A DNA stretch of 64,000 bases from Steroidobacteraceae bacterium (GTDB lineage: Bacteria; Pseudomonadota; Gammaproteobacteria; Steroidobacterales; Steroidobacteraceae). Location: assembly GCA_035995425.1 (NCBI GenBank), contig DASYKM010000173.1, positions 101,875 through 165,874 of the forward strand, in the 5' to 3' direction. The notes beneath the pieces were generated by a model. That model was not told the DNA's origin. It made no database searches and saw only the letters and a list, made by a program, of their open reading frames with translations. The translations under genes and the position numbers were made by a program. Positions 6,861-42,836 of this stretch are shown piece by piece. The first letter of the stretch is position 1; every line of letters starts with the position of its first letter.

Positions 6861-6885
6861 GGGCGAAACCTTTTCGCCAGCCACC

Positions 6886-6912: not shown

Positions 6913-6920
6913 TTACTTCC

Positions 6921-7808: not shown

Positions 7809-7810
7809 CC

Positions 7811-7837
7811 TGTCACAACCGCAAGGCTTGACTCGTC
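7811..7837 (+). promoter_or_regulatory. ECF41-type promoter motif TGTCACA-N16-CGTC upstream of the CMD gene
   Basis: TGTCACA at 7811-7817, 16 nt, then CGTC at 7834-7837, 39 nt upstream of the ATG at 7876. A 7-bp hairpin (ggtttcg/cgaaacc) lies at 7840-7860. Confidence 0.65.
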
Positions 7838-7875
7838 TAGGTTTCGTAAACATCGAAACCGAAGGAGTGAAAGCC

Positions 7876-8430: not shown

Positions 8431-9261
8431 ATGAAAAAGGAATTGGTGATCACCAGCGACGATCTCGGTATGACCCTCAGTGTCAACCAGGGCGTCGACA
8501 AGGCGCGCGAGCTGGGCGCGCTCACCAGCACCAACGTCATGGTGCCTTGTCCCTGGTTCGAGCACGCCGCGGTGCTCTTCCGCGATTCGGCCATCGACGT
8601 GGGCGTTCATTTCACGCTGACCTGCGAATGGACCCACTACAAGTGGCGGCCGCTCACGCGCGCGCCTTCCCTGCTCGATCGGGCCGGAGTCATGTATCGC
8701 ACCGTGTTCGATCTGATGACCCATGCGAATGCCGAAGACATTCGCGGTGAATGCCGCGCGCAGATCGAAACCGCGCTGCGGCGCGGGCTGCCGATAGGCT
8801 ATGCCGACGTGCACATGTGCATCCCGGTGGTGGAAGAATCCGCGGGCGCCTCGCGCATTGCGAACCCGGACTACGAGCTCGCACTCATGAATATCGTCGG
8901 CGGTGTCGCCCGTGAGTTCGGGTTGCCCTATCCCTATGCGCTCAAGGGCGAACGTCTCGAGCACTTCCGCTCCGCCTTGTCCATTTCCGGCAAGGGGCGT
9001 GATGCGATAGAGCGATACATCGGCTCGCTCGAGCCGGGCATTCACCATCTGAGCTGCCATTGCGCCATCGATTCGGAGGAGCAGAGCAATCTATCGGACG
9101 CTTCCGCCGCGGAATATCCGTGGTCTCTGCAGTATCGAGCTGATGACCTGCAATGCATCACGTCGCCGTGGTTCCGGAATTTGCTGGCCGTGCACGAGGT
9201 GCGCCTGGTGCGCATGCCATTTGGCGGGCGGCCCGCCGTTTCGAGTGTCACCGCGTCGTGA
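8431..9261 (+). CDS. YdjC / ChbG / HpnK-family carbohydrate deacetylase
   Basis: 'MKKELVITSDDLGMT' is the characteristic YdjC N-terminus. Upstream ATGs at 8404 and 8410 are also possible starts. Confidence 0.75.
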   Translation: MKKELVITSDDLGMTLSVNQGVDKARELGALTSTNVMVPCPWFEHAAVLFRDSAIDVGVHFTLTCEWTHYKWRPLTRAPSLLDRAGVMYRTVFDLMTHANAEDIRGECRAQIETALRRGLPIGYADVHMCIPVVEESAGASRIANPDYELALMNIVGGVAREFGLPYPYALKGERLEHFRSALSISGKGRDAIERYIGSLEPGIHHLSCHCAIDSEEQSNLSDASAAEYPWSLQYRADDLQCITSPWFRNLLAVHEVRLVRMPFGGRPAVSSVTAS

Positions 9262-10610
9262 GGCCGCGCGTGGACCTCGCGGTCGTCGGCGCGGGCCTCT
9301 CGGGAGCGCGCGCTGTCATCGAGCTGGTGCACGTACTTGACGCGCATCGTCACCCGCTGTCGCGTCCGCTGCGCGTCGCGCTCATCGATCCGGCCCCTGA
9401 TCACGGTCGCGGCGTGCCGTACGGCAACCGTTCGGATCGGCGGGCGTTGCTCATCGAGACGCTCGCGCAGACGCGCTGCCCGGAATTCTCGCGCTGGATT
9501 GGCGAGCATCGGGTCCTGCTCGCGGAAATGCAGCACTCGCAGGACACGGACGACCGCGCCTGGCATCGCCGCAATGCGGCGGCCGTCGCCGCCGGCGATT
9601 TGGCGGATCTCTATCTACCACGCCACGTGTTCGGGGCTTTCTCGGAAAGCTCGCTCGAGGATGCCCTGGCACTCGGCCGCCGCAACGGCCTGCTGACGGT
9701 GACCTCACATTGCGCCGAGGTGGTGGAGATCGAGCCGTCCGCCGGCGGATCCTACGGGCTGCGTTGCAGCGACGGGACCTCGATGGAGTGTGGCGCCGTG
9801 CTGATCGCCGTCGGATCCATCCCGCGTGGCGATGGGTTTCTTCCCACGCTCGGGCAACCCTTGGCGCACCGCTACATCACCGACCAGGCGTACTGCGGCA
9901 GCTTTCAGCTGCGCGATGCTTTCGACCTCTATCAAAGCCGCGAGTCCGCGGGGCCGGTGCGGCTCGCGATCATCGGCGCGGCGGCGTCCGCCATCGAAAG
10001 CCTGTACTGCGTCGTCAACCATCCACCGTTGTCGCAACGCATCGAGAGCATCACGACGATTTCGCGCAGCGGCATGTTGCCGGGAGGGATCACCGGCAAT
10101 CGGAGCGTGATCGCGTCCGACTATGCGATCAGGCGCACCTCCGCGGACGTCTATGTGCAGACGGCGCGCGAACTACTCGCACGCGGACATCTCGACATCG
10201 TACCTGCGCGCGTCGGGTCGATCGAAGCGGTGCCGGGCGCGTTGCGGCTGGAGCTGATCGACACGCTCGATGGCCAGCGCACCCAGACCGAGTTCGACCT
10301 CATCATCAATTGTTCGGGCGCCGGCGACGTGCAGACGAGCCGGTCACGTCTGCTGAATTTCCTGGGTCAACGGCTCGAAGTTCGCCGGCAGGGACGCGGG
10401 TTTCGAACCAACGGCGATCACTCGCTCGCTCAATGGCCGCGCGTATTTCTGGCCGGCCCACTGCTCAACGGTGGCGATGCCGGCAGCGACGTCGAGAGCA
10501 TCAGCGCGGTTTTCAAGGTCGGACGAGAGCTGGGTCAGGCCCTGGCCGCGTCGCTGACCGGCTCCGGCGCCGGAATGGCCACGGCGCCGCGCTCCGCGCA
10601 GGGCACCTGA
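9258..10610 (+). CDS. FAD/NAD(P)-binding oxidoreductase of unknown specificity
   Basis: GTG start overlaps the YdjC TGA (GTGA). Dinucleotide fold 'DLAVVGAGLSGARA' and a second 'RLAIIGAAASAIE'. Confidence 0.65.
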   Translation: MRPRVDLAVVGAGLSGARAVIELVHVLDAHRHPLSRPLRVALIDPAPDHGRGVPYGNRSDRRALLIETLAQTRCPEFSRWIGEHRVLLAEMQHSQDTDDRAWHRRNAAAVAAGDLADLYLPRHVFGAFSESSLEDALALGRRNGLLTVTSHCAEVVEIEPSAGGSYGLRCSDGTSMECGAVLIAVGSIPRGDGFLPTLGQPLAHRYITDQAYCGSFQLRDAFDLYQSRESAGPVRLAIIGAAASAIESLYCVVNHPPLSQRIESITTISRSGMLPGGITGNRSVIASDYAIRRTSADVYVQTARELLARGHLDIVPARVGSIEAVPGALRLELIDTLDGQRTQTEFDLIINCSGAGDVQTSRSRLLNFLGQRLEVRRQGRGFRTNGDHSLAQWPRVFLAGPLLNGGDAGSDVESISAVFKVGRELGQALAASLTGSGAGMATAPRSAQGT

Positions 10611-12079
10611 GGCAGCGTGATGGACGCCGGTTCCACGGCATTCGCGGCGATGACCTCGCGATACCAAAGCGCGCTGTCCTTGAAGCGACGCTCCTGCGTG
10701 TCGTAGTCCACCCAGACGATGCCGAAACGCTGCGTGTAGCCGCGCTCCCATTCGAAATTGTCGAGCAGCGACCACACGAAATAACCGGCGAGCGGAACGC
10801 CGGCGTCGATCGCGCGATGCGCTGCCAGAAAGTGGTCGCGAAGATATTCGGTGCGCCGTGTATCGCGGATGCGTCCTTCGGAATCGGGGCTGTCCGGGAA
10901 GCTGGCGCCGTTTTCAGTTATGAAAATGCTTGCCGGGGAATACTCGCGGTGCAATCGCAGCAGCGTCTCGTACAGGCCGGCGGGGTAGACCTCCCAGCCC
11001 ATGTCGGTCCACTGCGATTCGGGCGCGGCGTGCCGGGTGCGCGGAGCATTGTCATGCTCGGGCACGCGTGTGCTGCGAACGATCGCGCGGTAGTAGTAGT
11101 TCACGCCGAGGAAGTCGAGTGGCTTCGCGATGTCGGCGAGATCGCCGCGCGCGACGATCGTCTCCCAGTCGTCGGGCAATCGACCGTCGGCTGCGTAGTC
11201 GCGCAGCATGTCGGCTGGATACCCCCGACCAAACAGCGGATCGAGAAACCAGCGATTGAAATTGCCATCGAAATGTCTCGCCGCATCCGCATCAGCCGCG
11301 CTCGCCGAGGCGGGATGAGCGGGGCAGAGATTCAACGCGATGCCGACCTGCACTTGTTTGGAGCAATCACGTATGGCTTCGACCGCCCGGCCATGAGAGA
11401 GCAACAGGTGATGGCTCGCCGCGAGCGCCGCGGGCCAACTAGTGAGGCCCGGTGCGTGCTTGCCGATCTGGTAGCCGAGCATGCTGGTACACCAAGGTTC
11501 GTTGTGGGTGATCCAGCGGTGCACGCGGTCGCCGAGCCGGCGCGCCACGACATGCGCGTACTGGCCGAAGGCCTCCGCGGTTTCGCGTCGGGCCCAGCCG
11601 CCAGTTTCCTGCAGCGGTTGCGGGAGGTCCCAGTGGAAAAGCGTCGCAAATGGCTGAATTCCAGCGGTTTGCAGCATGTCTACTAGACGATCGTAGAAGT
11701 CGAGGCCAGCTTCGTTGATCGCGCCGCGTCCGTGCGGAACGATGCGCGGCCAGGCGATCGAGAACCGATAGGTGGACACCCCGAGCTCGCGCATGAGCGC
11801 CACGTCTTCGGCGAAGCGCCGGTAGTGATCGCAAGCCACGTCGCCGTTAGCGCCGTGCGCGATCTTGCCTGGCGTGCGGCAGAAGCGATCCCAGATCGAT
11901 TCACCGCGGCCATCGAGCTGCGCGGCGCCTTCGATCTGATAGGCGGAAGTGGCTACACCCCACAGGAAATCTGTAGGAAAAGTTACCTTGCTCAACTGGA
12001 TGGAGTTCTTTTGCAGACGCGATTTACCACCGGCTCCACGCGTTTGTCCCGCGCTGTCCGCATCGGGGACGCGGGACAA
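10535..12079 (-). CDS. GH1 beta-glucosidase
   Basis: 'FPTDFLWGVATSAYQIEGA', acid/base 'ITHNEPW', nucleophile 'ITENGA'. The N-terminal stretch of about 30 aa is probably over-extended. The 3' end overlaps the convergent FAD gene by 76 nt. Confidence 0.85.
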   Translation of the reverse strand: MSRVPDADSAGQTRGAGGKSRLQKNSIQLSKVTFPTDFLWGVATSAYQIEGAAQLDGRGESIWDRFCRTPGKIAHGANGDVACDHYRRFAEDVALMRELGVSTYRFSIAWPRIVPHGRGAINEAGLDFYDRLVDMLQTAGIQPFATLFHWDLPQPLQETGGWARRETAEAFGQYAHVVARRLGDRVHRWITHNEPWCTSMLGYQIGKHAPGLTSWPAALAASHHLLLSHGRAVEAIRDCSKQVQVGIALNLCPAHPASASAADADAARHFDGNFNRWFLDPLFGRGYPADMLRDYAADGRLPDDWETIVARGDLADIAKPLDFLGVNYYYRAIVRSTRVPEHDNAPRTRHAAPESQWTDMGWEVYPAGLYETLLRLHREYSPASIFITENGASFPDSPDSEGRIRDTRRTEYLRDHFLAAHRAIDAGVPLAGYFVWSLLDNFEWERGYTQRFGIVWVDYDTQERRFKDSALWYREVIAANAVEPASITLPQVPCAERGAVAIPAPEPVSDAARA

Positions 12080-12281
12080 TACTAAAAGTGATTTGCATTA
12101 ATCAAGCGGCACGGGCAGAATTTTCATTACTTCGCCGTCACGCACGCCTGGTGACGCACCGAAAACAAGGATAGTTAGGGGTCCCTGCATTGCCGTCGTT
12201 GCCGCGCCAGGATGGCGCGCGACCGGAACGCTGCACGCGCCCCCGCGCCGAGATTACAAGGAAGGACCGGGGGAATTCACG

Positions 12282-12770
12282 ATGAAGGCGAATCTGCACC
12301 GCATGGGCAAGGTCGATCATGTTGCGATCGCCGTGCGCGATCTGGACGCGGCGGTCGAGATGTATCAGTCGATTTTCGGCTTTGCACTGCTGAAAAGGCG
12401 CGAAGTGCAGGGCAAATTCTCCGGGATGCGCTCCGCCGAGATGGACGGCGGCAAGTTCACCATCGTGCTCATCGAAGGCACAGACCCCGCCTCGCAAGTC
12501 TGCCGCTATGTGGACCGTTACGGCCCCGGCGTGCAGCACATCGCCATCGTCGTCGACAACCTCGAAGCGACCGCGCGGCAGCTAGCCGACTCAGGGGCGC
12601 AGTTCGCCACCGAGATAATCCGCGGCGACGGGCTGCTGCAGCTGTTCACGAAGCGCGAAGACAACAGCGGAATGATGTTCGAATTCATCGAGCGCACCGA
12701 AGTCACTGGCTTCCAGGCGCAGAACATCCAGAAGCTCTTCGATCAACTGGAGAGTACCGCGGCTTACTGA
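12282..12770 (+). CDS. stand-alone HPPD / hydroxymandelate-synthase-like catalytic (C-terminal) barrel, VOC superfamily
   Basis: 162 aa. 'VDHVAIAV', 'SGMRSAEM', 'ASQVCRYVDRYGPGVQHIAI', 'LLQLFT', 'FEFIERTEVTGF..NIQKLFDQLE' track the Fe-binding C-terminal half of 4-hydroxyphenylpyruvate dioxygenases. 'ggggg' lies upstream of the ATG. Confidence 0.7.
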   Translation: MKANLHRMGKVDHVAIAVRDLDAAVEMYQSIFGFALLKRREVQGKFSGMRSAEMDGGKFTIVLIEGTDPASQVCRYVDRYGPGVQHIAIVVDNLEATARQLADSGAQFATEIIRGDGLLQLFTKREDNSGMMFEFIERTEVTGFQAQNIQKLFDQLESTAAY

Positions 12771-12805
12771 ACACATCTCGCGCGCGGCAAGGACAGGAGA
12801 AGGGG

Positions 12806-15793
12806 ATGACAGGTTCAGGGACGAGCGCGTCGGTGCGTTCGCGCGGAATGGCTTTCGATCCATCGCTTTGCATTCATGGGCTGGTTGAGCGGCAGGCGCA
12901 GCTCAGCCCGCGAAGCGTGGCGGTGAGCGACATGCGTGGCTCGTGCAGCTACGAGGAACTGGAGCGCGCGTCCGCGATTCTGGCGCGCCGGCTGCTTCGA
13001 TGCGGCGTGAAGCCGGACACCCTGGTCGGGCTCAGCGTACCGCGCGGCATCGACCTCATCGTCGGCGCGCTCGGCATCCTCAAGGCCGGCGGCGCCTACG
13101 TTGCACTCGACCCGTCCTATCCACCGCGACGGCTCGGCGAGATGGTCGAGGATGCAGCGCTGCGCGTGGTGGTGTGTACCCGCGCCACGCAAGCCGTCGC
13201 CGGTTCGGCGCATGCACTGCTGCTCGACGAAGATGACATCGCGGCCTCGGCACCGGAGGGCGTGCTCAACGCGCCGCGCAATCCGCAGGCAAGAAACCTC
13301 GCCTACGCGGTGTATACCTCCGGTTCCACCGGCCGGCCCAAGGCGTCGCTGCTCGAGCACCGCGGCCTGGTGAATCTCGCGCACGAGCAGTCGTTGCTGT
13401 TCGACGTTTCCACCCGCAGTCGCGTGTTGCAGTTCGCGTCCTTCTCATTCGATGCCGCGACATTCGAGTGGATCATGGCTCTCGCGAACGGTGCGCAGCT
13501 TTGTTTGCCCGACGAGCAGACGGTGAAGTCGCCGGCCGCGTTGTCGCGTTTCATCGCCGAACGTCAGATCACTCACGCCACCTTGCCTCCGGTGATGTTG
13601 GCCACGCTCGACCCGCAAGCGTGGCGTTCAGTCACGACGCTCATCGTCGCCGGCGAAGCCTGCAGTCGCGAACTCGCGGAGCGCTGGTGCGCAGGGCGCA
13701 GGTTCTTCAACGCGTATGGACCATCGGAGGTGACTGTGTGGTCGACCACCGGTGAATTCCGGCCCGGACAGCAGACAATCCACATTGGCCGGCCCATCGG
13801 CAATACGCATTGCCTGGTACTCGATGAAGCGCGCGCGCCGGTCGCGTCCGGCGAGGCGGGAGAGCTATATATCGCCGGCGTGGGAATTTCGCGCGGCTAT
13901 CTCCGGCGGCCGCAGCTCACCGCCGAGAGGTTCGTGCGAAATCCCTTTTCGCCCGCGCTCTCACCGCTCATGTTTCGCAGCGGTGATCGCGTGCGCGAGC
14001 TGCCCGACGGCAACTTCGAATTTCTCGGGCGTGTAGACCGCCAGGTCAAGGTGCGCGGCTTTCGCGTCGAGCCGGAAGAAATCGAAAGGTCCCTCGCCGA
14101 GCATCCGGCAGTCACGGCCGTCGCCGTCGAGCCGCAGCCGTGGCAAGGCACGAGCCGGCTGGTGGCTTACGTGGCGGTCGATGCCGGTTCGCTGTCCGGC
14201 GCCGACGCCGCGGCGGCCACCATGGCCCAGTGGGAAATTGCGTTCGATCGCACCTATCGCTCACGCAAACCAGCCTTCGCCGATTTCACCGGTTGGAACA
14301 GCAGCTATACGCGGGCCGCGATTCCGGAGCCGGCGATGCTCGGCTGGCGCGACGCCACCGTCGCGCGCATTCGGGCGTTCGCGCCGCGGCGATTGCTCGA
14401 GGTCGGTTGCGGTGCCGGGTTGCTGCTCGCGCCGCTGGTTGCGCACTGCGAGCACTACACGGCCACCGACATCTCCAGGGAGATAGTCGCCCGGCTCGCG
14501 CGCGACCTGCATCTGCTCGGCGAGAACGCGCGCAAGGTCGTGTGCCTCGCCGGCGCGGCGCACGAGCTCGAAGCGCTGGAAGGACAGCGCTTCGACACCA
14601 TCGTCATCAATTCCGTCATTCACTACTTCCCGAACGATCGCTTTCTGTGCGACACGCTCGCGCGTCTCATCGGCATGCTGAGCGAGGGAGGGCGCTTGTT
14701 CGTCGGCGACGTCCGCAACCTCAACTGGAATGAACAATTCCACGCTTCGGTGCTGCGCTTCCAGGGGCCATCGGATGCCGGGTTCTTCGAGCAGCGCCTG
14801 CGCGAGCGCTTGCGCACCGACCGCGAGCTGGTCGTTGCGCCCGAATTTTTCCTGAGCGCCGTGCGCGCCCTGCCGGGCGTGGAGTTCGTGGAAGTGCTGC
14901 CCAAGCTCGCGCGCGAAACCAATGAAATGAACGTCTTTCGTTACGACGCGATCATTCATCGCGCGGCGCCGGGCGCGCGGGCGGCCGTCAAGCCCGCGAC
15001 TCTGGAATGGGCATCGTCGCGGCGGGATTGGTCGGTGCAGCTGCACGAGCGATTCGCCGCGCAGGGCGCGCTCGTCATCCGGAATATTCCCAACGCGAGG
15101 CTCAGGAACGATGAGGATGCCGTCGATCCAGTCGAGTGGCTGGATCTCGCGCAGCGCCACGGCTGTGAAGTGGAGTTCGCCCTGGGCACGGGCTCGAACC
15201 ATGATCGCTTTCACGTGTTGCTGCGCCGTGGCGATCGCAACCCGGGCCTCACCGCGGCGATGTACGACGAGCCCATCGACACCACGCGCGAGCTCTGCAA
15301 CGACCCGCAGCGCAACCGCGTCGAACGCAGCCTCGAACCCGCGCTTCGCGAGCATCTGCGCGATCGGCTGCCGGCGTACATGGAACCGGCGGTCTTCGTG
15401 CTGTTGCCGGCGCTGCCGATGACGCTGAACGGAAAAATAGACCGACGGGCTCTTCCGATCCCCGATGCGAAGCCAACGGTCGAAGACGATTTGTCGCTCA
15501 CCGCCACCCAGCGGTTGCTGCGCGCCATCTGGCAACGACTGCTCGGCGCGCGGGAGTTCGGCATCAACGACAGCTTCCTCAGCGTCGGCGGCGATTCGTT
15601 GAGCGTCGTCAGCCTGGCGGCGGAGATCCACCAGCATTTCGACACCGACCTCGACTGGGCCGAGCTGCAGGGATCCACGCTGGCAACGCTCGCCGAACGC
15701 ATCGAGCTGCGGATCGCGGAGCGCACATCGCTCGCGGCGCAGCTGCAGATCGATCCACGGACCCAGGCTTCGCGCGAGGTATTGCGACTATGA
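12806..15793 (+). CDS. NRPS initiation module: A domain interrupted by a methyltransferase, then T (A(MT)-T)
   Basis: ATG at 12806 with 'ggagaagggg' upstream. A3 'LAYAVYTSGSTGRPKA', A5 'NAYGPSE', A7 'GELYIAGVGISRGYL', A8 'GRVDRQVKVRGFRVEPEEIE'. Then SAM motif 'LLEVGCGAGLL', A9 'LPAYMEP', A10 'NGKIDRRAL' and PCP 'GGDSL' (Ser codon 15596-15598). No C domain. Confidence 0.9.
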   Translation: MTGSGTSASVRSRGMAFDPSLCIHGLVERQAQLSPRSVAVSDMRGSCSYEELERASAILARRLLRCGVKPDTLVGLSVPRGIDLIVGALGILKAGGAYVALDPSYPPRRLGEMVEDAALRVVVCTRATQAVAGSAHALLLDEDDIAASAPEGVLNAPRNPQARNLAYAVYTSGSTGRPKASLLEHRGLVNLAHEQSLLFDVSTRSRVLQFASFSFDAATFEWIMALANGAQLCLPDEQTVKSPAALSRFIAERQITHATLPPVMLATLDPQAWRSVTTLIVAGEACSRELAERWCAGRRFFNAYGPSEVTVWSTTGEFRPGQQTIHIGRPIGNTHCLVLDEARAPVASGEAGELYIAGVGISRGYLRRPQLTAERFVRNPFSPALSPLMFRSGDRVRELPDGNFEFLGRVDRQVKVRGFRVEPEEIERSLAEHPAVTAVAVEPQPWQGTSRLVAYVAVDAGSLSGADAAAATMAQWEIAFDRTYRSRKPAFADFTGWNSSYTRAAIPEPAMLGWRDATVARIRAFAPRRLLEVGCGAGLLLAPLVAHCEHYTATDISREIVARLARDLHLLGENARKVVCLAGAAHELEALEGQRFDTIVINSVIHYFPNDRFLCDTLARLIGMLSEGGRLFVGDVRNLNWNEQFHASVLRFQGPSDAGFFEQRLRERLRTDRELVVAPEFFLSAVRALPGVEFVEVLPKLARETNEMNVFRYDAIIHRAAPGARAAVKPATLEWASSRRDWSVQLHERFAAQGALVIRNIPNARLRNDEDAVDPVEWLDLAQRHGCEVEFALGTGSNHDRFHVLLRRGDRNPGLTAAMYDEPIDTTRELCNDPQRNRVERSLEPALREHLRDRLPAYMEPAVFVLLPALPMTLNGKIDRRALPIPDAKPTVEDDLSLTATQRLLRAIWQRLLGAREFGINDSFLSVGGDSLSVVSLAAEIHQHFDTDLDWAELQGSTLATLAERIELRIAERTSLAAQLQIDPRTQASREVLRL
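14198..15340 (+). other. methyltransferase domain inserted between A8 and A9 of the loading A domain (approximate bounds)
   Basis: SAM-binding motif I 'LEVGCGAGL' at 14390-14416. 'TIVINSVIHYF' and 'GGRLFVGDV' follow. An insertion of about 380 aa lies between 'LVAYVAV' and 'LPAYMEP'. Confidence 0.75.
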
Positions 15794-15957
15794 ATGCGAC
15801 GTCGGTCCTGACGGTGCTCTTCAACAAGGGCGTACACGTCTCGACGCAGGACGACGAGCTCGTCATCGATGCGCCGAAAGGCGCGCTGCAGGCCGAGGAC
15901 GTCATGTTGATACGCGAGCATCGCGACGACATCGTCGACCTGCTGCGCCAGATCAAG
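15790..15957 (+). other. TubC_N-like NRPS docking domain
   Basis: 'VLTVLFNKGVHVSTQDDELVIDAPKGALQAEDVMLIREHRDDIVDLL' fits the pattern L..L...Gv.l..eGd.L.v.aP.gaL...l...l..hk..l..lL. Confidence 0.6.
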
Positions 15958-20906: not shown

Positions 20907-21082
20907 ACGCCGAAGCAGCCGGACGCGCTGACGTTGCCGACGTGATCGCGCAGTGCGCGCGCTCCGGCGTGCGCATGTCGGTCGACGGCGAGCAGTTGCG
21001 CCTGCAACTGCCGCAGGGTGGCATAGCACCCGCGCTGGTCTCGCTGATCCGGGAGAACAAGTCCGGTCTGATCCGGGCGCTC
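20903..21082 (+). other. TubC_N-like NRPS docking domain
   Basis: 'VADVIAQCARSGVRMSVDGEQLRLQLPQGGIAPALVSLIRENKSGLIRAL' has the same pattern as the NRPS2 N-terminus. Confidence 0.6.
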
Positions 21083-24000
21083 ACCGCCGTCAATGCCAGC
21101 GTCGCGAGACTCGCTCCGCCGCCGATGAAACGCGCGGCGCACGCGGGACGCCTGCCACTCGCCTACGGCCAGGAGAATCTGTGGCTGGGCGAGGAGCTGG
21201 CCGAGGTGGGCGACATGTCGCACCTCACCGTGGTCGTGAAGCTCCAGGGCACGGTGGATGTCGGTGCGCTGAAATCGGCGATTGCTTTCATCATCGAGCG
21301 ACACGCGCCGCTGCGAACCCGGTACCCGGAAGCGGCGGACGGAAGACCGTATCAGGAAGTGCTTTCCGCGGACGATACGCCCTTCGAATCGCTCGATCGG
21401 TCGGGCGCGGCGCCGCAGGTCATCGAGACCCTGTTAGGCGAGCTGCACCGGCGGCGTTTCTGGCTCAAAGACGGATTTCCTTGCCGCAGCACGCTCATCC
21501 GGCTCGCGAACGAGCAGCACATCTTCGTTTTCACGACGCATCACATCTGCTCCGATGGATGGTCGATCGGCGTGCTGCTGCGGGAGATCGGCGAGTGCTA
21601 CAACGCCGTCGCCCGGGGCCGCGCGCCGTCATGCCCGCCGCTCGAGATCGAATATTCCGATTACGCACTGTGGCAGAAGGACGCGGAAGAGTCGGCGTGG
21701 TTCGGCGCGGGACTGCGGTACTGGAAGGAGCGGCTCAAGGATCCGCCGGCGCTGCATGGCCTGCCTCTCGACCGGCCGCGACCGACGGTTCAGTCGTATG
21801 CGACGGCTCGCGTGAGCCACGACATCGATGTCGCCACCCTGCGGCGGCTCGAGACCTTCGCGCGCGCGCAAGGCACGACCTTGTTCGTCGTGCTGATGAG
21901 TGCCTTCGGAATGCTGGTGCATCGCTACAGTGGTGACGAAGACATGATCGTCGGCACGCCGATCGCCAACCGGCTGCGCGACGAGATGTCCCCGCTCGTC
22001 GGACTCTTCATGAACGTGCTGGCGATGCGGCTGCGCATCCAGGCCGCCGACACGGGTGCGGACTTCATCGCGCGCACGCATGCGCACTATCTGCGCGACA
22101 TCGAGCACCAGGGCATCCCCATCGAGCGCGTGGCGGTCGAGGTGGCGCGCGAGTCGAAGGCCTCGAGCCATGCACCACTCGCGCAATTGTCGTTCGTGCT
22201 GCACAACAACGTCGTCGCCGAAGTATCCATGCAGGGTCTCCAGTGCCGCACGGAGTTCACGCTGCCGGGCGCGTCGGTCTATGAGCTCAACGTGTCCGCG
22301 CACGAGACGGCACAGGGACTGCATTTCGACTGGCAGTACAACACCGGCATTTTCGACCCGGACCGCATCGGCCGCATGGCCGCGCACTTCGCCTCTCTGC
22401 TGCGCGATCTGCTGAAGTCGCCGCGCAAGCGCGTCGGCCAGCTGCGGATGATCTCCGACGAAGAGCAGGCGGCGTTGCTCACGCTCGGCAACGACAGTGC
22501 GACGCCGTACGCGCCCGAAGTGGCGTTCCACGAATTGTTCGAAGCGCGTGCCGCGAGCGACCCGCGCAAGATCGCGGTGATCTGCGGCGAGCAGCGCCTC
22601 GACTACGATGCGCTGAACCGGCGCGCGAACCAGCTCGCGCACTGGCTGCGCGCGAGCGGCCGCGCGCAGGCGGATCTGCCCATCGGCGTGAGCCTCGAGC
22701 GCTCGGCGGACATGCTGGTGGCGCTGCTCGCGGTGGTGAAGGCCGGAGCCGCCTATCTACCGCTCGATCCGGCGTATCCCGCGGCACGGCTGGCCCACAT
22801 GGCCGGCCACGCCGGGGTGCGCACCGTGATTGCCTCGCGTGCCACCGCGGCGGGGGTCGGCGATCCGGCGGCGGCGGTACTGCTCGACGACGGCAGCTTC
22901 CGCGCGGTGCTCGAAGCGCAGCCGGACACCAATCCCTCGGCCACGACGGGCTGGCAGGGCGGCAACCGCCTCGCCTACGTGATCTACACCTCGGGATCCA
23001 CGGGTCAGCCGAAAGGCGTGATGATCGAGCATCGCAGCCTCACCAATTTCCTGCGTTCGATGCAGAAGGAACCGGGAATTCACACGGACGACGTGATGCT
23101 CGCTGTGACCACGCCGTCGTTCGACATCCACACCCTCGAGCTCTTCGCGCCGCTCGTGAGCGGTGCCACGGTGGTGATCGCCGGGCCCGGCGAATATGCC
23201 GATCCCGCCGAGCTCGCACGCCTCATCGACACGCACGCGGTATCCGTGGTCCAGGCCACGCCCACGACCTGGCTCGGGCTCATGGATTACGGCTGGTCGC
23301 CGCAGCGGGATCTCAAGGCCTTGTGTGGCGGGGAGGCGCTGCCCGAAGCGCTCCGGGACAAACTACTCGCGCGGCCACTGCTCGCGCTGTGGAACATGTA
23401 CGGACCCACCGAGACCTGCGTATGGTCGGCGGTCAAGCGCATCGAGAAAGACGTGGTGATCGGCCGGCCGATCGCCAACACCCGCTTCTACGTGCTCGAC
23501 CGCGAGCTGGCGCCGGTACCCATCGGCGTCGACGGCGATCTCTATATCGCGGGCGACGGCCTGGCACGCGGCTATCTGCATCAGCCCGAGCTCACGGCCG
23601 GGGCATTTCCGACGACGCTGCCGGCGTCGCTGCCGGAACAGCGCCTCTACAAGACTGGCGATCGGGTGTGCCGGCGCGCCGATGGCGACCTGGTCTTTCG
23701 CGGGCGGCAGGACCACCAGGTCAAGGTCAACGGCTTCCGCATCGAAACGGCGGAGGTGGCGGCCGCGCTCGAGACGCTGCCCGGCGTCAAACAAGCTGCC
23801 GTGGTTGTCAGGCAGCGCGCCAACGGCGCGTCATTTCTGGCGGCGTTCGTGGTGACTGATGGCGACGCGTGGTCGGCACGGGTGCTCGGCGCGCAACTGC
23901 AGATGCTGCTGCCACGCTACATGATTCCCGCGGTCATCGAGCGCCTGGAGCGCCTGCCACACACCGCGAACGGCAAGCTGGATTTGAAACAACTGGGCGC

Positions 24001-25663
24001 GCGTCCGCTGCAGACGCCGGAATTCGCCGCGGCGCAGTCCGTGGAGCTGCCGCAAACATCCGTCGAGCGTGCGATCGCCTCGGCGTGGACCGATCTGCTC
24101 GGCGTGCAAAGCCTCACGCTCGATGACGATGTGTTCGCGCACGGCGCCGACTCCATCCGCGTGCTCATGTTCATCGGGCGCATGCGCAAGCAAGGCCTGA
24201 AACTGCGGGTCGGCGACATCTATCGCCTGCCGACCGTGCGCGCGCTGGCCGGCATCGCCGAGCAGGTCGGCGATGACAGCGGTCGGTCGCTGTATTCCGG
24301 CCCGGCGCCGCTGCTCGCCGACCAGCTCGCGGCGCTCGGCAATGAGTTCGTGTGGCGCAAGTTCTTCATCAACTTCATGTTCGACCTGCCGCGGCCATTG
24401 GACCTCGCGATCCTGCAGCGTGCGTTCGAGCGGCTCGCCGGTACGCACGACGCCTTGCGCGCGCGACTCACGCGGACCGATGGCCGGTGGCGACAGCACA
24501 TTGCAGCGGAATGCGACCAGCCGGCGGTGTTTGCCGAGACCCTGGGCTGCGGTTGGCTCGAGGCGCAGGCGCCCGATGAGATCCGTGCCGCCACCGATCG
24601 TGTGCACGCGCGTCTGTCTATCGAGCAAGGGCCGCTGTCCTGCGCGGCCGAGATCGTCGACTCGCAGGGCGTGCGCAAGCTGCTGTTCTGCGTGAGCCAC
24701 CTCGTGGCGGACGGATTTTCCACCGTGGTGCTGCTCGAAGACCTCATCGAGGCCTACGCGGCGTTGCGAGCCGGTGCGCAGCCAGCGTCAGCCAACACCC
24801 TATCTATCGGCAAGTGGGCGCCGCTCTATCGTGAGTACGTGAGCTCCGCGGCGTTCTGCGCGCAGATTGCCTACTGGGAAGCGCTGCCGTGGAGCAGGTG
24901 CGCACCGTTGCCGCTCGATTATCCGCAGAACGATACGCCGCAGATCAACGTGGCGCATTCCTCCCAGCACACCGGACTGCAACTCGACGCCGCCTCGAGC
25001 CAGGCGGTACATCTCGATGTGCCGCGACAGCTCGGGATCACGGCGCGGAACTTCATCGCCATCGCGCTCGCGCGCGTGCTCATGCGCTGGAACGGAGCCG
25101 ATGCGGTGGCGCTCGACATCCACGACGCGGGGCGCCAGCACGTTCAGGACGCGCTCGGAATCGATCTGTCGCGGACCGTCGGCGCGTTCTCGATTCGCAA
25201 CCGCGTGCTGCTCGAGCGCGTGCCGGCCGCCGATGCACAGCGCGAGCTCCTGGAAATGCACCAGCAACTCGAGCTCATTCCGCAGGGCGGGGCGGGCCTG
25301 CTGCCGCTGCAGGTGGCCTGCGAACGTGAAGAGGTGGCCGAGCGGGCGCGCCGGATTCCGAAGGCCGAGGTGTGGTTCAACTATCTCGGGACTGTCAACG
25401 ACACGCTGTCGGCGCACGAGCGCGCCGATGCCGATATTCCCACGCGCATGTCCGAGGCCGTCCGCCACATCCAGGGCGTTACGCACGACCCGCGGACGCC
25501 GCGCGAGCGGACGCTGAGTCTCCTCGGCTTCGTCAGGAATGGCGTGCTCGAGCTCAGTTTCGAATACAGCGCGCAATTGCATCGCGAGGAAACCATCCGC
25601 GAGCTGGCGCAGCAGCTGCGCGTCGAGATGATGAACACACTGCGTGCCGTCGGCGCGATTTAG
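20903..25663 (+). CDS. NRPS termination module: docking-C-A(Gly-like)-T-terminal C domain
   Basis: ATG overlaps the exporter TGA. C3 'THHICSDGWS'. A3 'LAYVIYTSGSTGQPKG', A5 'NMYGPTE', A7 'GDLYIAGDGLARGYL', A10 'NGKLD'. PCP 'HGADSI' (Ser codon 24152-24154). Second C-like domain with 'SHLVADGFS'. No TE or R domain. Confidence 0.9.
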   Translation: MNAEAAGRADVADVIAQCARSGVRMSVDGEQLRLQLPQGGIAPALVSLIRENKSGLIRALTAVNASVARLAPPPMKRAAHAGRLPLAYGQENLWLGEELAEVGDMSHLTVVVKLQGTVDVGALKSAIAFIIERHAPLRTRYPEAADGRPYQEVLSADDTPFESLDRSGAAPQVIETLLGELHRRRFWLKDGFPCRSTLIRLANEQHIFVFTTHHICSDGWSIGVLLREIGECYNAVARGRAPSCPPLEIEYSDYALWQKDAEESAWFGAGLRYWKERLKDPPALHGLPLDRPRPTVQSYATARVSHDIDVATLRRLETFARAQGTTLFVVLMSAFGMLVHRYSGDEDMIVGTPIANRLRDEMSPLVGLFMNVLAMRLRIQAADTGADFIARTHAHYLRDIEHQGIPIERVAVEVARESKASSHAPLAQLSFVLHNNVVAEVSMQGLQCRTEFTLPGASVYELNVSAHETAQGLHFDWQYNTGIFDPDRIGRMAAHFASLLRDLLKSPRKRVGQLRMISDEEQAALLTLGNDSATPYAPEVAFHELFEARAASDPRKIAVICGEQRLDYDALNRRANQLAHWLRASGRAQADLPIGVSLERSADMLVALLAVVKAGAAYLPLDPAYPAARLAHMAGHAGVRTVIASRATAAGVGDPAAAVLLDDGSFRAVLEAQPDTNPSATTGWQGGNRLAYVIYTSGSTGQPKGVMIEHRSLTNFLRSMQKEPGIHTDDVMLAVTTPSFDIHTLELFAPLVSGATVVIAGPGEYADPAELARLIDTHAVSVVQATPTTWLGLMDYGWSPQRDLKALCGGEALPEALRDKLLARPLLALWNMYGPTETCVWSAVKRIEKDVVIGRPIANTRFYVLDRELAPVPIGVDGDLYIAGDGLARGYLHQPELTAGAFPTTLPASLPEQRLYKTGDRVCRRADGDLVFRGRQDHQVKVNGFRIETAEVAAALETLPGVKQAAVVVRQRANGASFLAAFVVTDGDAWSARVLGAQLQMLLPRYMIPAVIERLERLPHTANGKLDLKQLGARPLQTPEFAAAQSVELPQTSVERAIASAWTDLLGVQSLTLDDDVFAHGADSIRVLMFIGRMRKQGLKLRVGDIYRLPTVRALAGIAEQVGDDSGRSLYSGPAPLLADQLAALGNEFVWRKFFINFMFDLPRPLDLAILQRAFERLAGTHDALRARLTRTDGRWRQHIAAECDQPAVFAETLGCGWLEAQAPDEIRAATDRVHARLSIEQGPLSCAAEIVDSQGVRKLLFCVSHLVADGFSTVVLLEDLIEAYAALRAGAQPASANTLSIGKWAPLYREYVSSAAFCAQIAYWEALPWSRCAPLPLDYPQNDTPQINVAHSSQHTGLQLDAASSQAVHLDVPRQLGITARNFIAIALARVLMRWNGADAVALDIHDAGRQHVQDALGIDLSRTVGAFSIRNRVLLERVPAADAQRELLEMHQQLELIPQGGAGLLPLQVACEREEVAERARRIPKAEVWFNYLGTVNDTLSAHERADADIPTRMSEAVRHIQGVTHDPRTPRERTLSLLGFVRNGVLELSFEYSAQLHREETIRELAQQLRVEMMNTLRAVGAI
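24305..25660 (+). other. terminal condensation-like (CT-type) domain, approximate bounds
   Basis: About 450 aa after the last PCP. The active-site motif is SHxxxDG ('VSHLVADGFS', 24695-24715) rather than HHxxxDG. Confidence 0.7.
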
Positions 25664-25671
25664 GGGAACGC

Positions 25672-27702
25672 ATGGCGACCGGGCAACCTCTCGAATACGA
25701 ACGTCTGATCGTGCCGCGCGCGCGCCGGAAAGCCTCCGGGCCCGCGCGTGCCACGATTCTCAAGACTGCGCTCACGCGCCTCGACTATCACGGCCTCAGG
25801 AAGGTGGATGTCGACACCGGCACCGGCAGTCCGCGCTTCGAGCCGCAGAGCGCGCCCGACCTGCTGACCGTGTGCCTCACGGCCTATAACGAAGAGGTCT
25901 CCGCCTATCACACCTCGCTGAGCGCGCTGGCGCGCGGCGCGGACTATTTCGTCGGCGCGGGCGAGCCGCGCATCGGCCAGGAGTTCACCATCTGCATCCT
26001 GGTCGATGGCATCGAGCGCATGTCGGCGGGCTTTGCGGCCTATGCCCAGCGGCTGGGCATCTATCAACCGGCGCTGCTCGATCCGCGCGCCGACTATCAC
26101 CTGTTCGAGTCGTCCATCGACCGTCACCTGCTGCAGTTCGCGCCGCAGGACCTGCCGGCGCAGGGCGATCACGAAGCCGCGCTGCGCCGCGAGGCCGGCA
26201 ATCTCACCAATCTCACGCCGGAGGCGAATCGCCAGCGCATCGTGCTGTTCATCAAGCGCGATAACCGCGGCAAGCTCGATTCGCACCGCTGTTTTTTCGA
26301 GATCGCCTGCCGGGAAACGCGGCCGGCGTACTTCCTGCAGGTCGACGTGGGTACCAGCCCCGACGCGAGCGCGGTGCACGAGATGTGGCGCAGCATCGCG
26401 CACTCGGCCAACGTCGCCGCCGTCTCGGCGCGTTCGCACATGCCGTTGCCGCAGGGCGCCACCGACTTGTTAGGGTCGTGGCAATACGGTGACATCGCCA
26501 TCGAGCGCATCCTGCTCTGGCCCACCGAGATGCTCATGGGCTACATGAGCGTGCTGTCGGGACAGTTGTGCCTCACACGCAGCGATGCGGTGTGGCGCAA
26601 GCAGCCGGTTGCACCGGCGGCGAACGACGAGTTCGCCGCGCCACCGCCCGCCAACGGGCGCGTCATGCAGAGCTATCTACGCGGGCTGGAGCAGCTCGGA
26701 CCGTTCGAATCGAACATGTTCCTGGCCGAGGACCGCATCCTCGGGCTCGAGATCGTGTTTCAGCCGGACAGCCGTTGGGAGCTCGGTTACGTTCCGCAGG
26801 CGAACGCGGCCATCGACAAGTGCGAAAGCTGGAACGAGTTGCTGTGCCAGCGCCGCCGCTGGAAATGCAGCAGCGTTGCCTGCCGCCTGTGGATGTTCAC
26901 GCGCGTGCTCGACTACGCGCGAAGCGCCAACCGCACGCTGCCGCAGAAGCTGCGCATTCTTTCGGCCACCAGCTTTCACGCCGCGTATTTCCTCATCGAG
27001 TGGCTGATGCCGGCGTTCGCGGTGCTCATCTTCTCGTCGTTGCATCACTTCGCCGCCCTGGCCGTCGGCGCGGGCGGCCCATGGCGCGCGCTGGTAGATG
27101 CGAGCTTCTTCGGGCTGCTGGCGCTGCTTGGCACGCAGCTGGCGGTGTCGGCGTCGGGGCGGATCACGGCGGCCACCAATCGCTTCTATGGATTCTCGAT
27201 CGCCTGCCAGACGCTCTACACCTTGTGCATGACGGCGCTGGTGATCGGTGGCAACCTGCATGTAGCGGCGATCGTGAAGCCCCTGACATTGCTGGCCGTG
27301 ATGTTAGTCGCGGTCCTGGTTCTCGCGCATGGTTACGCGCGCGAGGTGTTTCGCGGCCTGCTGCGCTGCCTGGTCACGTACTGGACGTCGCGCCCCGCGG
27401 TGTCTTTCCTGATCATGACTTATGCGGCGCTCAACTCGCACAACACCAGCTGGGGGACCAAGGGACTGACGCGTCCGCACTACCTCGACGAGGCCGTGCG
27501 GGCGGGGTTCGAACACTTCCGTCTCAAGACCGTGTTGCTGATGGTCGCCGCCAACGCGGGTTTCTATACGCTCGCCGTACGCGGCGGGTGGACCACGTCG
27601 TTCGCGGGGCTCGAGAGCGTGTTGTGGCTGCTGCTCGCACAGATCGGCGTGGCGTTCATCGGGCGCTTCGTCATCGCGTTGCGGAATCACAGGGCGTCCT
27701 GA
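25672..27702 (+). CDS. chitin synthase homologue (GT2, eukaryotic division-1 Chitin_synth_1-like)
   Basis: ATG lies 9 nt after the NRPS3 stop. 'CLTAYNEE', 'ICILVDGIE', 'KRDNRGKLDSHRCFF', 'LQVDVGT', 'SVLSGQLCLTR', 'NMFLAEDRILGLEIV' (EDR 26728-26736), 'QRRRW' (26848-26862). Multi-helix C-terminal region with 'NTSWGTKG' (27448-27465). Confidence 0.8.
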   Translation: MATGQPLEYERLIVPRARRKASGPARATILKTALTRLDYHGLRKVDVDTGTGSPRFEPQSAPDLLTVCLTAYNEEVSAYHTSLSALARGADYFVGAGEPRIGQEFTICILVDGIERMSAGFAAYAQRLGIYQPALLDPRADYHLFESSIDRHLLQFAPQDLPAQGDHEAALRREAGNLTNLTPEANRQRIVLFIKRDNRGKLDSHRCFFEIACRETRPAYFLQVDVGTSPDASAVHEMWRSIAHSANVAAVSARSHMPLPQGATDLLGSWQYGDIAIERILLWPTEMLMGYMSVLSGQLCLTRSDAVWRKQPVAPAANDEFAAPPPANGRVMQSYLRGLEQLGPFESNMFLAEDRILGLEIVFQPDSRWELGYVPQANAAIDKCESWNELLCQRRRWKCSSVACRLWMFTRVLDYARSANRTLPQKLRILSATSFHAAYFLIEWLMPAFAVLIFSSLHHFAALAVGAGGPWRALVDASFFGLLALLGTQLAVSASGRITAATNRFYGFSIACQTLYTLCMTALVIGGNLHVAAIVKPLTLLAVMLVAVLVLAHGYAREVFRGLLRCLVTYWTSRPAVSFLIMTYAALNSHNTSWGTKGLTRPHYLDEAVRAGFEHFRLKTVLLMVAANAGFYTLAVRGGWTTSFAGLESVLWLLLAQIGVAFIGRFVIALRNHRAS

Positions 27703-27706
27703 GCGC

Positions 27707-28207
27707 ATGCAAGCGAACGCCATGACCGACATGCTCGTGCGGCTCTACGACCTGCCGCCCGTGGAGCCGATGCTGGCCGACTTCGCCGCACACGGCATCA
27801 CGGTCCGGCGGCCGCGCGCCTATGAGAAGAGCCTCGTGGTCGAGTGGGTCGCCAAGACCTTCAGCGCCGGCTGGGCGAGCGAATGCGACGTCTGCTTCGC
27901 GCGGGTTCCGGTGTCCGCCCACATCGCCACGCGCGACGGCGAGATCATCGGCTTTGCCTGCCACGAGAGCACGTACCGCAACTTCTTCGGTCCGGTCGGA
28001 GTGCTCGAGGAGTACCGCGCCGACGGGCTCGGCAAGTGCCTGCTGCTCGCGAGCCTGCACGCCATGCGCGACCTTGGCTATGCCTACGCCATCATCGGCG
28101 GACCCACGGATGCCGTGGGCTTCTACGTCCAGGCGGTCGGCGCGTCGCGCATCGACGGATCGAGCCCGGGCATCTACGTGGACCGTTTGCGCGGCTCGGA
28201 TAGCTAG
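27707..28207 (+). CDS. GNAT-family N-acetyltransferase
   Basis: Starts 5 nt after the CHS stop; ATG at 27722 is an alternative. GNAT core 'GPVGVLEEYRADGLGKCLLLASLHAMRDLGYAYAII'. Confidence 0.7.
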   Translation: MQANAMTDMLVRLYDLPPVEPMLADFAAHGITVRRPRAYEKSLVVEWVAKTFSAGWASECDVCFARVPVSAHIATRDGEIIGFACHESTYRNFFGPVGVLEEYRADGLGKCLLLASLHAMRDLGYAYAIIGGPTDAVGFYVQAVGASRIDGSSPGIYVDRLRGSDS

Positions 28208-28219
28208 CCAGGAAGACCC

Positions 28220-29224
28220 ATGCCCTCAACACCCCAGGCCGTCGACGTGCTCGACCGCATCGATCGCTGCACCTATCTCGAGCAGTACCGGTTTCGCAAG
28301 CCGTTCCTGCTGCGCGGCGGCGCGACGCACCTGCCCGCGTATCGCAAGTGGACGCTGGAATATCTCGAGAGCCAGATCGCCGACGTCATCATCCAGCCGC
28401 TGATCTATGAAGAAGACAAGCGCGACTATTCGCGGGCGAAATTCCTCGAGATGACGTTCCGTGATTTCGCGCGCGAGATCCGCTCCAGTAACTCGCGCAT
28501 GCTCTATTGGTTCGAGGGCCCCGCGTCGGCGAATTTCTGGGGCGGTGCGGGCAAGCAGGCGCGCGTGAACACCGAGCTCGCCATGCTCGCTGCCGATTTC
28601 GCGCCGCCGACGTTCCTGCACGAATCCGAGCTCATCTACGCGCAGATGATCCTCGGCACCGGCAAGAACGGCACCGTGGTCCACCACGACTACGGCGGCG
28701 AAGCGAAATGCCTGATGCAGCTCATTGGCGAGAAGCACGTGCTCCTCATCCCGCCGCAGCACGGGCGGGCGCTCAAGCTGCATCCGATCACCGGGCAGAA
28801 GAACTTCACCATCAGTACCCTCGACCTGCGCGGCGGCGACTTCAGGGCCATTGCCGACGATGCGCCGCTGTTCGAGGCGCGCATCCGCCCCGGTGATGTG
28901 CTGTATTGGCCGTCATTCTGGCTGCACGACGTCGCCAACGAAGGCGCGATCAACTTCGCGATCACCGTGCCGGTCGACGAGATGCCCGTGAACGCGCTCA
29001 TGTTGCGGCACCTGCTGGCCGAGAATCTGTCGCGACTTCGGCAGCTCGATCCGCAGCTGCGCATCTCGAGCGACGCGATTGCGCAGCTCGAGCAGGAGCT
29101 GCTCGATCACACCAGCGTCAACACGCTGTGGGATCTGCATACCGCCTCGATTGCCTATCGCGGCAAGCACTGGCGGCCGCGCCAGGAGCCGGAGATGACC
29201 GCGATCGCGGAACCCGCCGGTTGA
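28220..29224 (+). CDS. JmjC / cupin_8-type Fe(II)/2-oxoglutarate oxygenase-like protein
   Basis: 'FRKPFLLRGGATHLPAYRKWTLEYL'. HxD in 'TVVHHDYGG', 'LIGEKHVLLIPP', distal His in 'GDVLYWPSFWLHDV'. Confidence 0.7.
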   Translation: MPSTPQAVDVLDRIDRCTYLEQYRFRKPFLLRGGATHLPAYRKWTLEYLESQIADVIIQPLIYEEDKRDYSRAKFLEMTFRDFAREIRSSNSRMLYWFEGPASANFWGGAGKQARVNTELAMLAADFAPPTFLHESELIYAQMILGTGKNGTVVHHDYGGEAKCLMQLIGEKHVLLIPPQHGRALKLHPITGQKNFTISTLDLRGGDFRAIADDAPLFEARIRPGDVLYWPSFWLHDVANEGAINFAITVPVDEMPVNALMLRHLLAENLSRLRQLDPQLRISSDAIAQLEQELLDHTSVNTLWDLHTASIAYRGKHWRPRQEPEMTAIAEPAG

Positions 29225-30428: not shown

Positions 30429-30534
30429 CGATCCCCCGGAGTGCGTCACTGTTAGTGGTCTCTGGGTCGGAAAATCCTTCGCGATGAATCCTCACACTGG
30501 CGGCACCGATCGCTAGAATCGCGGCTCACCGCCC

Positions 30535-38986: not shown

Positions 38987-38994
38987 GCGTTTAT

Positions 38995-42303: not shown

Positions 42304-42310
42304 GCTAGGT

Positions 42311-42829: not shown

Positions 42830-42836
42830 TAGGGGT

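Follow-up and report, generated by a model that had tools for sequence, protein, structure and literature searches.

In the Nod-factor pathway a GT2 synthase (NodC) makes an oligomer of N-acetylglucosamine (GlcNAc), a deacetylase (NodB) frees an amine, NodA transfers an acyl group and an ABC system (NodIJ) exports the product. Here we analyse a 64,000-nt stretch of DNA from a Steroidobacteraceae bacterium (contig DASYKM010000173.1, positions 101,875 to 165,874; hereafter the window) and suggest that its region 8431-29224 follows the same logic with other parts. The region holds a conserved biosynthetic cluster, which we read, tentatively, as coupling a three-module non-ribosomal peptide synthetase (NRPS) without a thioesterase to a sugar branch. 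The product is probably an undescribed peptide-aminosugar conjugate, as judged from the gene sequences.

The cluster appears to work like the Nod pathway, but it is not a member of it: it holds no orthologue of NodA, NodB, NodC or NodIJ. As synthase it has a eukaryote-type (division 1) chitin synthase homologue (CHS), whose membrane domain is large. Its deacetylase belongs to the YdjC family, whereas NodB is a CE4 enzyme, and the predicted transferase, in place of NodA, is a condensation-family domain of the NRPS. Its donor would be a carrier-bound tripeptide instead of an acyl-ACP, and the exporter is of the SyrD/PvdE type and not of the ABC-2 type of NodIJ. The Nod pathway is complemented by tailoring enzymes (NodH, NodS, NolL, NoeI), and relatives of the cluster likewise bring their own: sulfotransferases, a methyltransferase of the FkbM type and an O-acyltransferase of the Acyl_transf_3 family.

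The individual parts have further counterparts. In hopanoid biosynthesis the GlcNAc-adding GT2 HpnI is paired with the YdjC-family de-N-acetylase HpnK, yielding free glucosamine (GlcN). The T-C didomain of streptothricin ORF18 takes an amino sugar as its acceptor and is thus a condensation-family domain with a soluble amine acceptor, as we propose for the terminal domain of the cluster NRPS (C*). Of the same kind are the rhabdopeptide-type terminal condensation (C) domains and VibH, the amine-accepting C domain of vibriobactin described in PMC10510592. Unlike the VibH-type domains, C* belongs to the clade of epimerization (E) domains, carries the motif [S/T]HxxxD and would receive an acceptor made by a chitin synthase. 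Bacterial division-1 chitin synthases, the same protein family as the window CHS, were first described by Goncalves et al. 2016 (PMC5122149), who found chs inside secondary-metabolite clusters in Teredinibacter turnerae as well as Cellvibrio mixtus. That work does not describe the cassette of YdjC, FAD protein, C*, GNAT and Cupin_8, an analysis of the release domain, a peptide-sugar hypothesis or a cluster of the Steroidobacteraceae type.

Gene content and conserved linkage of the cluster

Genes were called from Pfam profile matches together with a check of the open reading frames (ORFs). The region holds the following features, where A, T and MT denote adenylation, carrier and methyltransferase domains.

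8431-9261, + strand: predicted YdjC/ChbG-family carbohydrate de-N-acetylase (Pfam YdjC, 138.8 bits; ORF alternatives 8404/8431)
9258-10610, + strand: FAD/NAD(P)-binding protein, NAD_binding_9 (YdhS-like), directly downstream of YdjC (Pfam)
10535-12079, - strand: GH1 beta-glucosidase (Pfam, 560 bits)
12282-12770, + strand: glyoxalase/bleomycin-resistance (VOC) family protein, 162 aa (Pfam Glyoxalase, 61 bits)
12806-15793, + strand: NRPS1, loading module A-MT-T (Pfam domains)
15790-19170, + strand: NRPS2, docking (TubC_N)-C-A-T (Pfam domains)
19167-20906, + strand: ABC half-transporter of the SyrD/PvdE type (Pfam; TIGR01194)
20903-25663, + strand: NRPS3, docking (TubC_N)-C-A(Gly)-T-C* (Pfam domains)
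24278-25660, + strand: C*, terminal condensation-family domain of NRPS3 (Pfam Condensation; E-domain matches in the PDB)
25672-27702, + strand: CHS, eukaryote-type (division 1) chitin synthase homologue (Pfam PF01644, PF03142)
27707-28207, + strand: small GNAT acyltransferase (Pfam Acetyltransf_1, 26.8 bits)
28220-29224, + strand: Cupin_8/JmjC-type Fe(II)/2-oxoglutarate oxygenase (Pfam, 89 bits)

The seven genes from NRPS1 through Cupin_8 are joined by ATGA overlaps or by gaps of at most 12 nt, and 8 nt separate the C*-bearing NRPS3 from CHS. Every gene named in the preliminary description of this DNA is found by Pfam at the position given there. Its claim that the NRPS has no thioesterase is also borne out, as a Pfam scan of the three NRPS proteins gives neither a thioesterase (TE) nor a reductase (R) domain.

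CHS homologues of this type are rare (28 bacterial clusters in a collection of 5.8 billion proteins). We established their contexts from gene tables and by searching every retrieved locus with the window proteins (tblastn). The order YdjC-FAD-VOC-NRPS1-NRPS2-ABC is kept on one strand in L110, L111 and the P0054 contig, all of them close relatives, and L110 and L111 continue into NRPS3 with its T-C* end. The contig that carries L110 also holds L002, and the one that carries L111 also holds L001. L001 and L002 run on through NRPS3-CHS-GNAT, which is followed by Cupin_8 in L002 and not in L001. The flanks of the three close relatives differ from each other and are unrelated housekeeping genes (ligA/zipA/smc, uvrB, an RND efflux pump). 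The same order between unrelated flanks therefore makes the YdjC-FAD pair the conserved left (5′) border of the cluster.

L004 reads YdjC-FAD-CHS-C*-GNAT-Cupin_8 with a free-standing C*, and the Cellvibrionaceae loci L008 and L011 have NRPS3(T-C*)-CHS-YdjC-FAD, with GNAT further downstream. YdjC directly adjoins CHS in four more distant loci, and the pair CHS-YdjC is seen in L009, which comes from a cultured Cellvibrionaceae isolate, and in L010. Taken over all loci, YdjC is syntenic in L110, L111, L004, L005, L008, L009, L010 and L011, and Cupin_8 is present in L002, L004, L009 and L011. L012 and L013 keep the C*-CHS adjacency although their CHS identity is only 31-32%. The co-occurrence of CHS, YdjC and the terminal domain across genomes, which the preliminary description put forward as a check, is thus found in relatives. 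Its caveat that YdjC and FAD might lie here by chance, with YdjC not syntenic elsewhere, falls away, since the pair forms the 5′ border in three relatives or adjoins CHS.

Within the NRPS-linked clade of CHS, YdjC accompanies CHS in 9 of 13 loci, versus 0 of 13 loci from other clades of bacterial CHS (Fisher p = 4.6e-4). We also inspected 80 ordinary YdjC loci (755 kb, YdjC identity at most 37%), which came from a metagenome scan with the YdjC alignment and were used only as a negative control; CHS, FAD, GNAT, Cupin_8 and C* occur in 0/80 of them. By tblastn, none of these cassette genes is found in the enterobacterial, cyanobacterial and most Bacteroidota CHS loci. The linkage of YdjC, CHS and NRPS exceeds chance.

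A Steroidobacter metagenome-assembled genome (MAG; L005/L006, 1-11599) carries YdjC-FAD-DUF1796-ABC-CHS-GlcNAc 2-epimerase-like and, after these, a TonB-dependent receptor; neither an NRPS nor C* is in view. This sugar-only cassette shows that YdjC and FAD accompany CHS independently of the peptide.

In an uncultured Bacteroidota MAG (L016, 10010-18488) a CHS of 28% identity has behind it a free-standing C-domain protein of 470 aa with the motif PHMIIDG, a different subtype. Two proteins without a Pfam match and two enzymes of the radical SAM/SPASM type come next, and there is no NRPS module in view. CHS and a C domain are thus paired independently in a second phylum. On another contig a BAHD/C-like transferase adjoins CHS. 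Different members of the C/BAHD superfamily, three kinds by our count, have thus been recruited beside CHS more than once.

The terminal domain C* and the peptide branch

The best PDB matches of C* are E domains (PvdL 143, TycA 2xhg 111, GrsA 5isw 94 and 6ta8 92 bits), with C domains at 43 bits or less; 6ta8 is listed as an E domain in PMC10510592. Against the E-domain profile TIGR01720 C* scores 48.8 bits, below the cut-off of 74.2. In place of HHxxxDG and EGHGRE it carries SHLVADG and HDAGRQ. The second change is general: eight CHS-linked C* from the loci and six database homologues (P0032-P0037; the two sets partly overlap) all have [H/N/F]D[A/S/T/P]GR. [S/T]HxxxD is likewise found in all these sequences except one truncated fragment. 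In other words, the epimerase Glu is replaced by His, Asn or Phe in all CHS-linked members and the first His by Ser or Thr, while the catalytic second His and the Asp are kept. The next-nearest relatives are ordinary T-E ends which retain HH and E[GA]HGRE. The distant matches P0038-P0041 were set aside as evidence on the link to CHS, being ordinary T-E ends followed by further modules.

Sequence comparison thus indicates that C* descends from the E-domain clade and that it is not a working epimerase. It is not a C domain of the VibH type, which corrects the "free-standing-type" terminal C domain of the preliminary description. The module before C* is of the Gly type, so epimerization would have no effect there. 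C* ends an NRPS without a TE or R domain, and in L004 it is a separate protein between CHS and GNAT. Its SHxxxDG is the same variant as in the fungal terminal condensation (CT) domains, release domains for which SHxxxD is reported in PMC10510592. Those domains cyclise their product intramolecularly, whereas C* also stands free beside CHS. LgrA, like NRPS3, has an E-type domain after a Gly module; it hands its chain to LgrB, whereas no module follows C*. The most economical reading of these features is that C* is a repurposed release transferase.

The codes of the A domains were read by alignment to a GrsA reference segment. The A1 code DAFTIAAVWK is Phe-like and an MT domain follows it, hence we predict an N-methylated, Phe-like aromatic residue as the one loaded by NRPS1. 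NRPS2 is not canonical. The motif of its C domain is HQxxxDG, with Gln in place of the usually catalytic second His, and in A2 a Gly replaces the alpha-amine-binding Asp235 of an otherwise Gly-like pocket, G[I/V]L[H/S]LGLVVK. Both features are conserved in five orthologues and recur in L110, L111, L008 and L011; the change of Asp235 to Gly is confirmed in the HMMER alignment to LgrA. This suggests that A2 takes a small substrate lacking the normal alpha-amine contact. A 572-bit match between A2 and LgrA was rejected as a sign of special similarity, as it is the sum of two ordinary A-domain matches. The first C domain of NRPS3 is canonical (HHICSDG), and the A3 code DILQLGMVWK is predicted to be of the Gly type; DIL[Q/A]LG[M/L]VWK is found in 7/7 loci examined. 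The assembled peptide may then be N-methyl-aromatic-X-Gly.

The sugar branch, export and neighbouring genes

CHS scores 60.2 bits against PF01644 (cut-off 25) and 26.7 bits against PF03142, just below the cut-off of 27. It has no NCBIfam match, and its only sequence matches in the PDB are the fungal and oomycete chitin synthases CaChs2, PsChs1 and ScChs1. The motifs E353-D354-R355, Q393-RRR-W397 and S593-WGTKG598 (EDR, QRRRW, SWGTKG) are invariant or nearly so in 21 sequences, fungal CHS included. An AlphaFold2 (AF2) model with pLDDT 81.5 aligns by Foldseek to ScChs1 and CaChs2 over about 690-770 columns, with TM-scores of 0.75 (query) to 0.81 (target). The match spans the glycosyltransferase and membrane domains, and the next class, hyaluronan synthases, reaches a TM-score of 0.37. 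By profile, motifs and predicted fold CHS is thus a member of the division-1 chitin synthase family. In the literature searched we found no enzyme assay of any bacterial division-1 CHS. We rejected the idea that CHS is a self-resistance copy of an inhibitor's target, since there is presumably no essential bacterial chitin synthase to protect.

The active-site residues D10, D11, H61, H125 and H206 of KpChbG (PMC9402603) are all invariant in six CHS-linked YdjC (alignment positions D10, D11, H60, H128, H205/H206). The likeness of the cluster YdjC to HpnK and ChbG consists in these residues and in weak profile matches, which lie far below the equivalog cut-offs (67.6 versus 227 bits for ChbG; 46.9 versus 232.6 bits for HpnK). 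The cluster differs from HpnI/HpnK and ChbG also in that the partner GT2 is a CHS of the processive type and that the FAD partner is unique to the cassette. By sequence the cluster YdjC forms a subfamily of its own, and its identity to ordinary YdjC proteins does not exceed 37%.

The FAD protein is paired with YdjC in every relative, and in the window the two are translationally coupled. It has no sequence match in the PDB and none in NCBIfam. Its AF2 model is confident (pLDDT 87) and shows a flavoprotein binding two dinucleotides. The best TM-scores are those to N-hydroxylating monooxygenases, PvdA and Lys 6-monooxygenase (0.58/0.62), while lipoamide dehydrogenases reach about 0.48. We take this as a hint of a PvdA-like N-hydroxylating type and not as an assignment.

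The ABC protein is a fusion of transmembrane and nucleotide-binding domains and scores 342.7 bits against TIGR01194 (cyclic peptide exporters), above the cut-off of 286.2. In relatives its gene is kept between NRPS2 and NRPS3, and in L005 it adjoins CHS without a visible NRPS. For GNAT neither the PDB nor NCBIfam gives an informative match. With 60-75% identity in L001, L002, L004, L008 and L011, where CHS is 40-67% identical, it is the most conserved accessory protein of the cassette. The Cupin_8/JmjC protein matches JMJD5, JMJD7 and FIH in the PDB, its HxD...H triad is conserved in five orthologues, and it is probably a hydroxylase. The VOC protein is a candidate for self-protection or tailoring. 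Other tailoring genes are seen in relatives: L009 encodes three sulfotransferases, besides a type II thioesterase and a protein of the penicillin amidase family (13987-18115, 6468-7445), and L011 has an FkbM methyltransferase and an Acyl_transf_3 O-acyltransferase (13955-16513).

Several gene boundaries of the window deserve a remark. The YdjC start at 8431 is correct, because homologues begin with MKKxLV, and the GTG start of FAD at 9258 overlaps the YdjC stop codon (GTGA). The NRPS1 ORF from 12212 is a high-GC overextension with an Arg-rich, nonsensical N-terminus. The true start is about 12806, where the RBS-like GGAGAAGGGG (a putative ribosome-binding site) precedes the ATG; NRPS1 homologues have 1003-1022 aa. 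The VOC gene is hidden in another frame inside this overextended ORF and was overlooked in the preliminary description. L110, L111 and the P0054 contig each carry an orthologue in this place, also of 162 aa.

The 3′ end of the convergent GH1 gene overlaps that of FAD by 76 nt. In L110, L111 and the P0054 contig GH1 is missing and FAD is directly followed by VOC, so GH1 is probably an insertion specific to this window and not a pathway member. A GH1 of 47% identity also occurs in L008 (Cellvibrionaceae; 19552-20835), a few kb away from the cluster, and for it coincidence and an accessory role are both possible. Further genes lie at the flanks.

5784-6860: beta-lactamase-fold gene, upstream flank (PF00144)
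29229-30449: beta-lactamase-fold gene, downstream flank (PF00144)
30535-32406: GH2 (Pfam)

Just upstream of YdjC and on the same strand, 6921-8367 holds two genes, one of the CMD family and one for a SigJ-type ECF sigma factor whose C-terminal domain is SnoaL-like. We rejected both of these as cluster members, together with GH1, GH2 and the beta-lactamase-fold genes, since none is conserved in relatives; GH1 and GH2 had been noted as lying nearby in the preliminary description. Sulfatase-maturation genes also lie near the cluster, besides GH1 and GH2. The computed GC content is about 65% across the region, and a low-GC island at 37703-43000 (about 52% versus about 64%) encodes a 427-aa protein without a Pfam match and a 1119-aa AAA_16/TPR STAND-type NTPase. 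The island was probably acquired horizontally and may be related to defence. An Rfam scan of the window gave no match.

Proposed pathway and its alternatives

We suggest that C* offloads the tripeptide onto a CHS-derived, YdjC-deacetylated, GlcN-containing glycan and that the ABC protein exports the product. This chemistry is deduced from gene content, motifs, folds and synteny and is offered as a working model, somewhat short of an even chance of being right.

Step 1: CHS would polymerise UDP-GlcNAc to a GlcNAc glycan, which is probably short.

Step 2: YdjC would free one amine of this glycan. The coupled FAD enzyme may modify the same amine, possibly by N-hydroxylation.

Step 3: NRPS1-3 would assemble N-methyl-aromatic-X-Gly on the last carrier domain (T3).

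Step 4: C* would transfer the glycyl thioester to the sugar amine, thus releasing the peptide.

Step 5: GNAT and the JmjC oxygenase would tailor the product.

Step 6: The SyrD/PvdE-type ABC protein would export the product, and VOC may protect the producer.

We prefer this pathway because of the synteny and the YdjC controls, the intact CHS and YdjC residues, the motif losses of C*, the Gly module, the absence of a TE, the Nod-like tailoring genes and the sugar-only cassette of L005. The Nod-like logic proposed in the preliminary description survives in part. The genomic predictions, the intact residues of the two sugar enzymes, a release domain which is not an epimerase, the tailoring genes and L005 speak for it, while no Nod orthologues accompany it. 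The cluster family may yield N-peptidyl chito-oligosaccharides, or their N-hydroxy/hydroxamate derivatives if the FAD enzyme N-hydroxylates the freed amine, which would make them peptide analogues of Nod/Myc factors; we regard this as possible, but on the doubtful side.

Several points weigh against the proposed pathway. CHS is modelled with a full membrane domain like that of extruding, processive synthases, which sits awkwardly with an oligomer that is released and tailored in the cytoplasm. In L012 and L013 the C*-CHS pair has neither YdjC nor FAD within 10 kb, and L009 and L010 have CHS-YdjC and a type II thioesterase without C* within 10 kb. Only moderate TM-scores support the placing of the FAD enzyme. 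The A-domain codes depend on the GrsA segment taken as reference, which reproduces the published DAWTIAAIC. Finally, LgrA is a precedent for an inactive E domain behind a Gly module (PMC10510592).

One alternative is that C* is an ordinary or degenerate E domain, that the beta-lactamase-fold protein at 29229-30449 releases the peptide as a SurE-like PBP-type thioesterase and that CHS is unrelated to release. C* is indeed most similar to E domains, and beta-lactamase-fold genes flank the cluster. T-E termini served by a trans-acting PBP-type thioesterase are moreover a known release design (surugamide SurE). We nevertheless consider this alternative very improbable, as tblastn finds no counterpart of 29229-30449 in any related locus, every C* member has lost the epimerase Glu, a Gly-type last module leaves nothing to epimerise and a tripeptide is a poor substrate for macrocyclisation. 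Mere coincidence, with CHS, YdjC and FAD belonging to the polysaccharide metabolism of a glycan degrader and only lying beside the NRPS operon, is strongly disfavoured and hardly credible. It would account for the nearby GH1, GH2 and sulfatase-maturation genes, and in the 2016 survey (PMC5122149) other CHS genes of bacteria have contexts without an NRPS, but it is at odds with the translational coupling from NRPS1 through Cupin_8, with the recurrence of the same gene set between different flanks in Steroidobacterales-like and Cellvibrionaceae genomes and with the negative controls (0/80 ordinary YdjC loci; p = 4.6e-4).

The remaining alternatives keep C* and CHS together and change the chemistry. 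C* might release the peptide by hydrolysis, like the C-like release domain of crocacin biosynthesis, or esterify a sugar hydroxyl in the manner of the mycobacterial PapA proteins, and CHS, YdjC and FAD would then glycosylate the freed peptide or produce a separate glycan that is co-regulated. Such coupling without amide transfer is unlikely, yet has some weight: hydrolytic release by a C domain is cited for crocacin, PapA5 is among the weak PDB matches of C*, C* shares SHxxxD with the fungal terminal release domains, and C*-CHS is kept without YdjC/FAD in L012 and L013. But the free-standing C* between CHS and GNAT in L004, the recruitment of three different C/BAHD-type transferases beside CHS and the intact YdjC active site in 9/13 loci are more readily explained by a transferase that acts on the sugar. 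Alternatively, C* might load the tripeptide on GlcN or UDP-GlcN, supplied by YdjC from GlcNAc or its derivative, and the N-peptidyl-GlcN would prime CHS, which extends and extrudes the chain. Yeast Chs2 reportedly takes 2-acylamido GlcNAc analogues as primers (PMC4007471); C* and CHS are adjacent, 8 nt apart, and the complete membrane domain of the CHS model suits extrusion. Priming of this kind is quite unlikely in our view, as the SyrD/PvdE-type exporter is kept with CHS even without a visible NRPS (L005), which points to a cytoplasmic end product, and a tripeptide at C2 would have to pass a channel presumably sized for N-acetyl groups.

The offloading of the tripeptide by C* onto a sugar amine thus remains our preferred reading. 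The cluster combines known kinds, NRPS clusters and Nod-like acylation of a glycan, and has a realistic chance of representing a new metabolite class. The literature (a collection of 8 million papers) searched for peptidyl-chitooligosaccharides, for NRPS with chitin synthase and for shipworm cluster families contains no characterised product and no peptide-chitooligosaccharide class. A related cluster is present in a cultured Cellvibrionaceae isolate (L009), which makes the hypothesis directly testable. If it is true, this would be the first biochemical role in bacteria for a horizontally acquired eukaryote-type chitin synthase. It would also be a new strategy of NRPS release, in which a domain of the epimerization clade is turned into a sugar-directed transferase. 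A family of peptide-chitooligosaccharides would then be predicted in soil Steroidobacteraceae and in Cellvibrionaceae, the family that includes shipworm symbionts, and chitin oligomers are potent signals in both soil and shipworm-symbiont settings.

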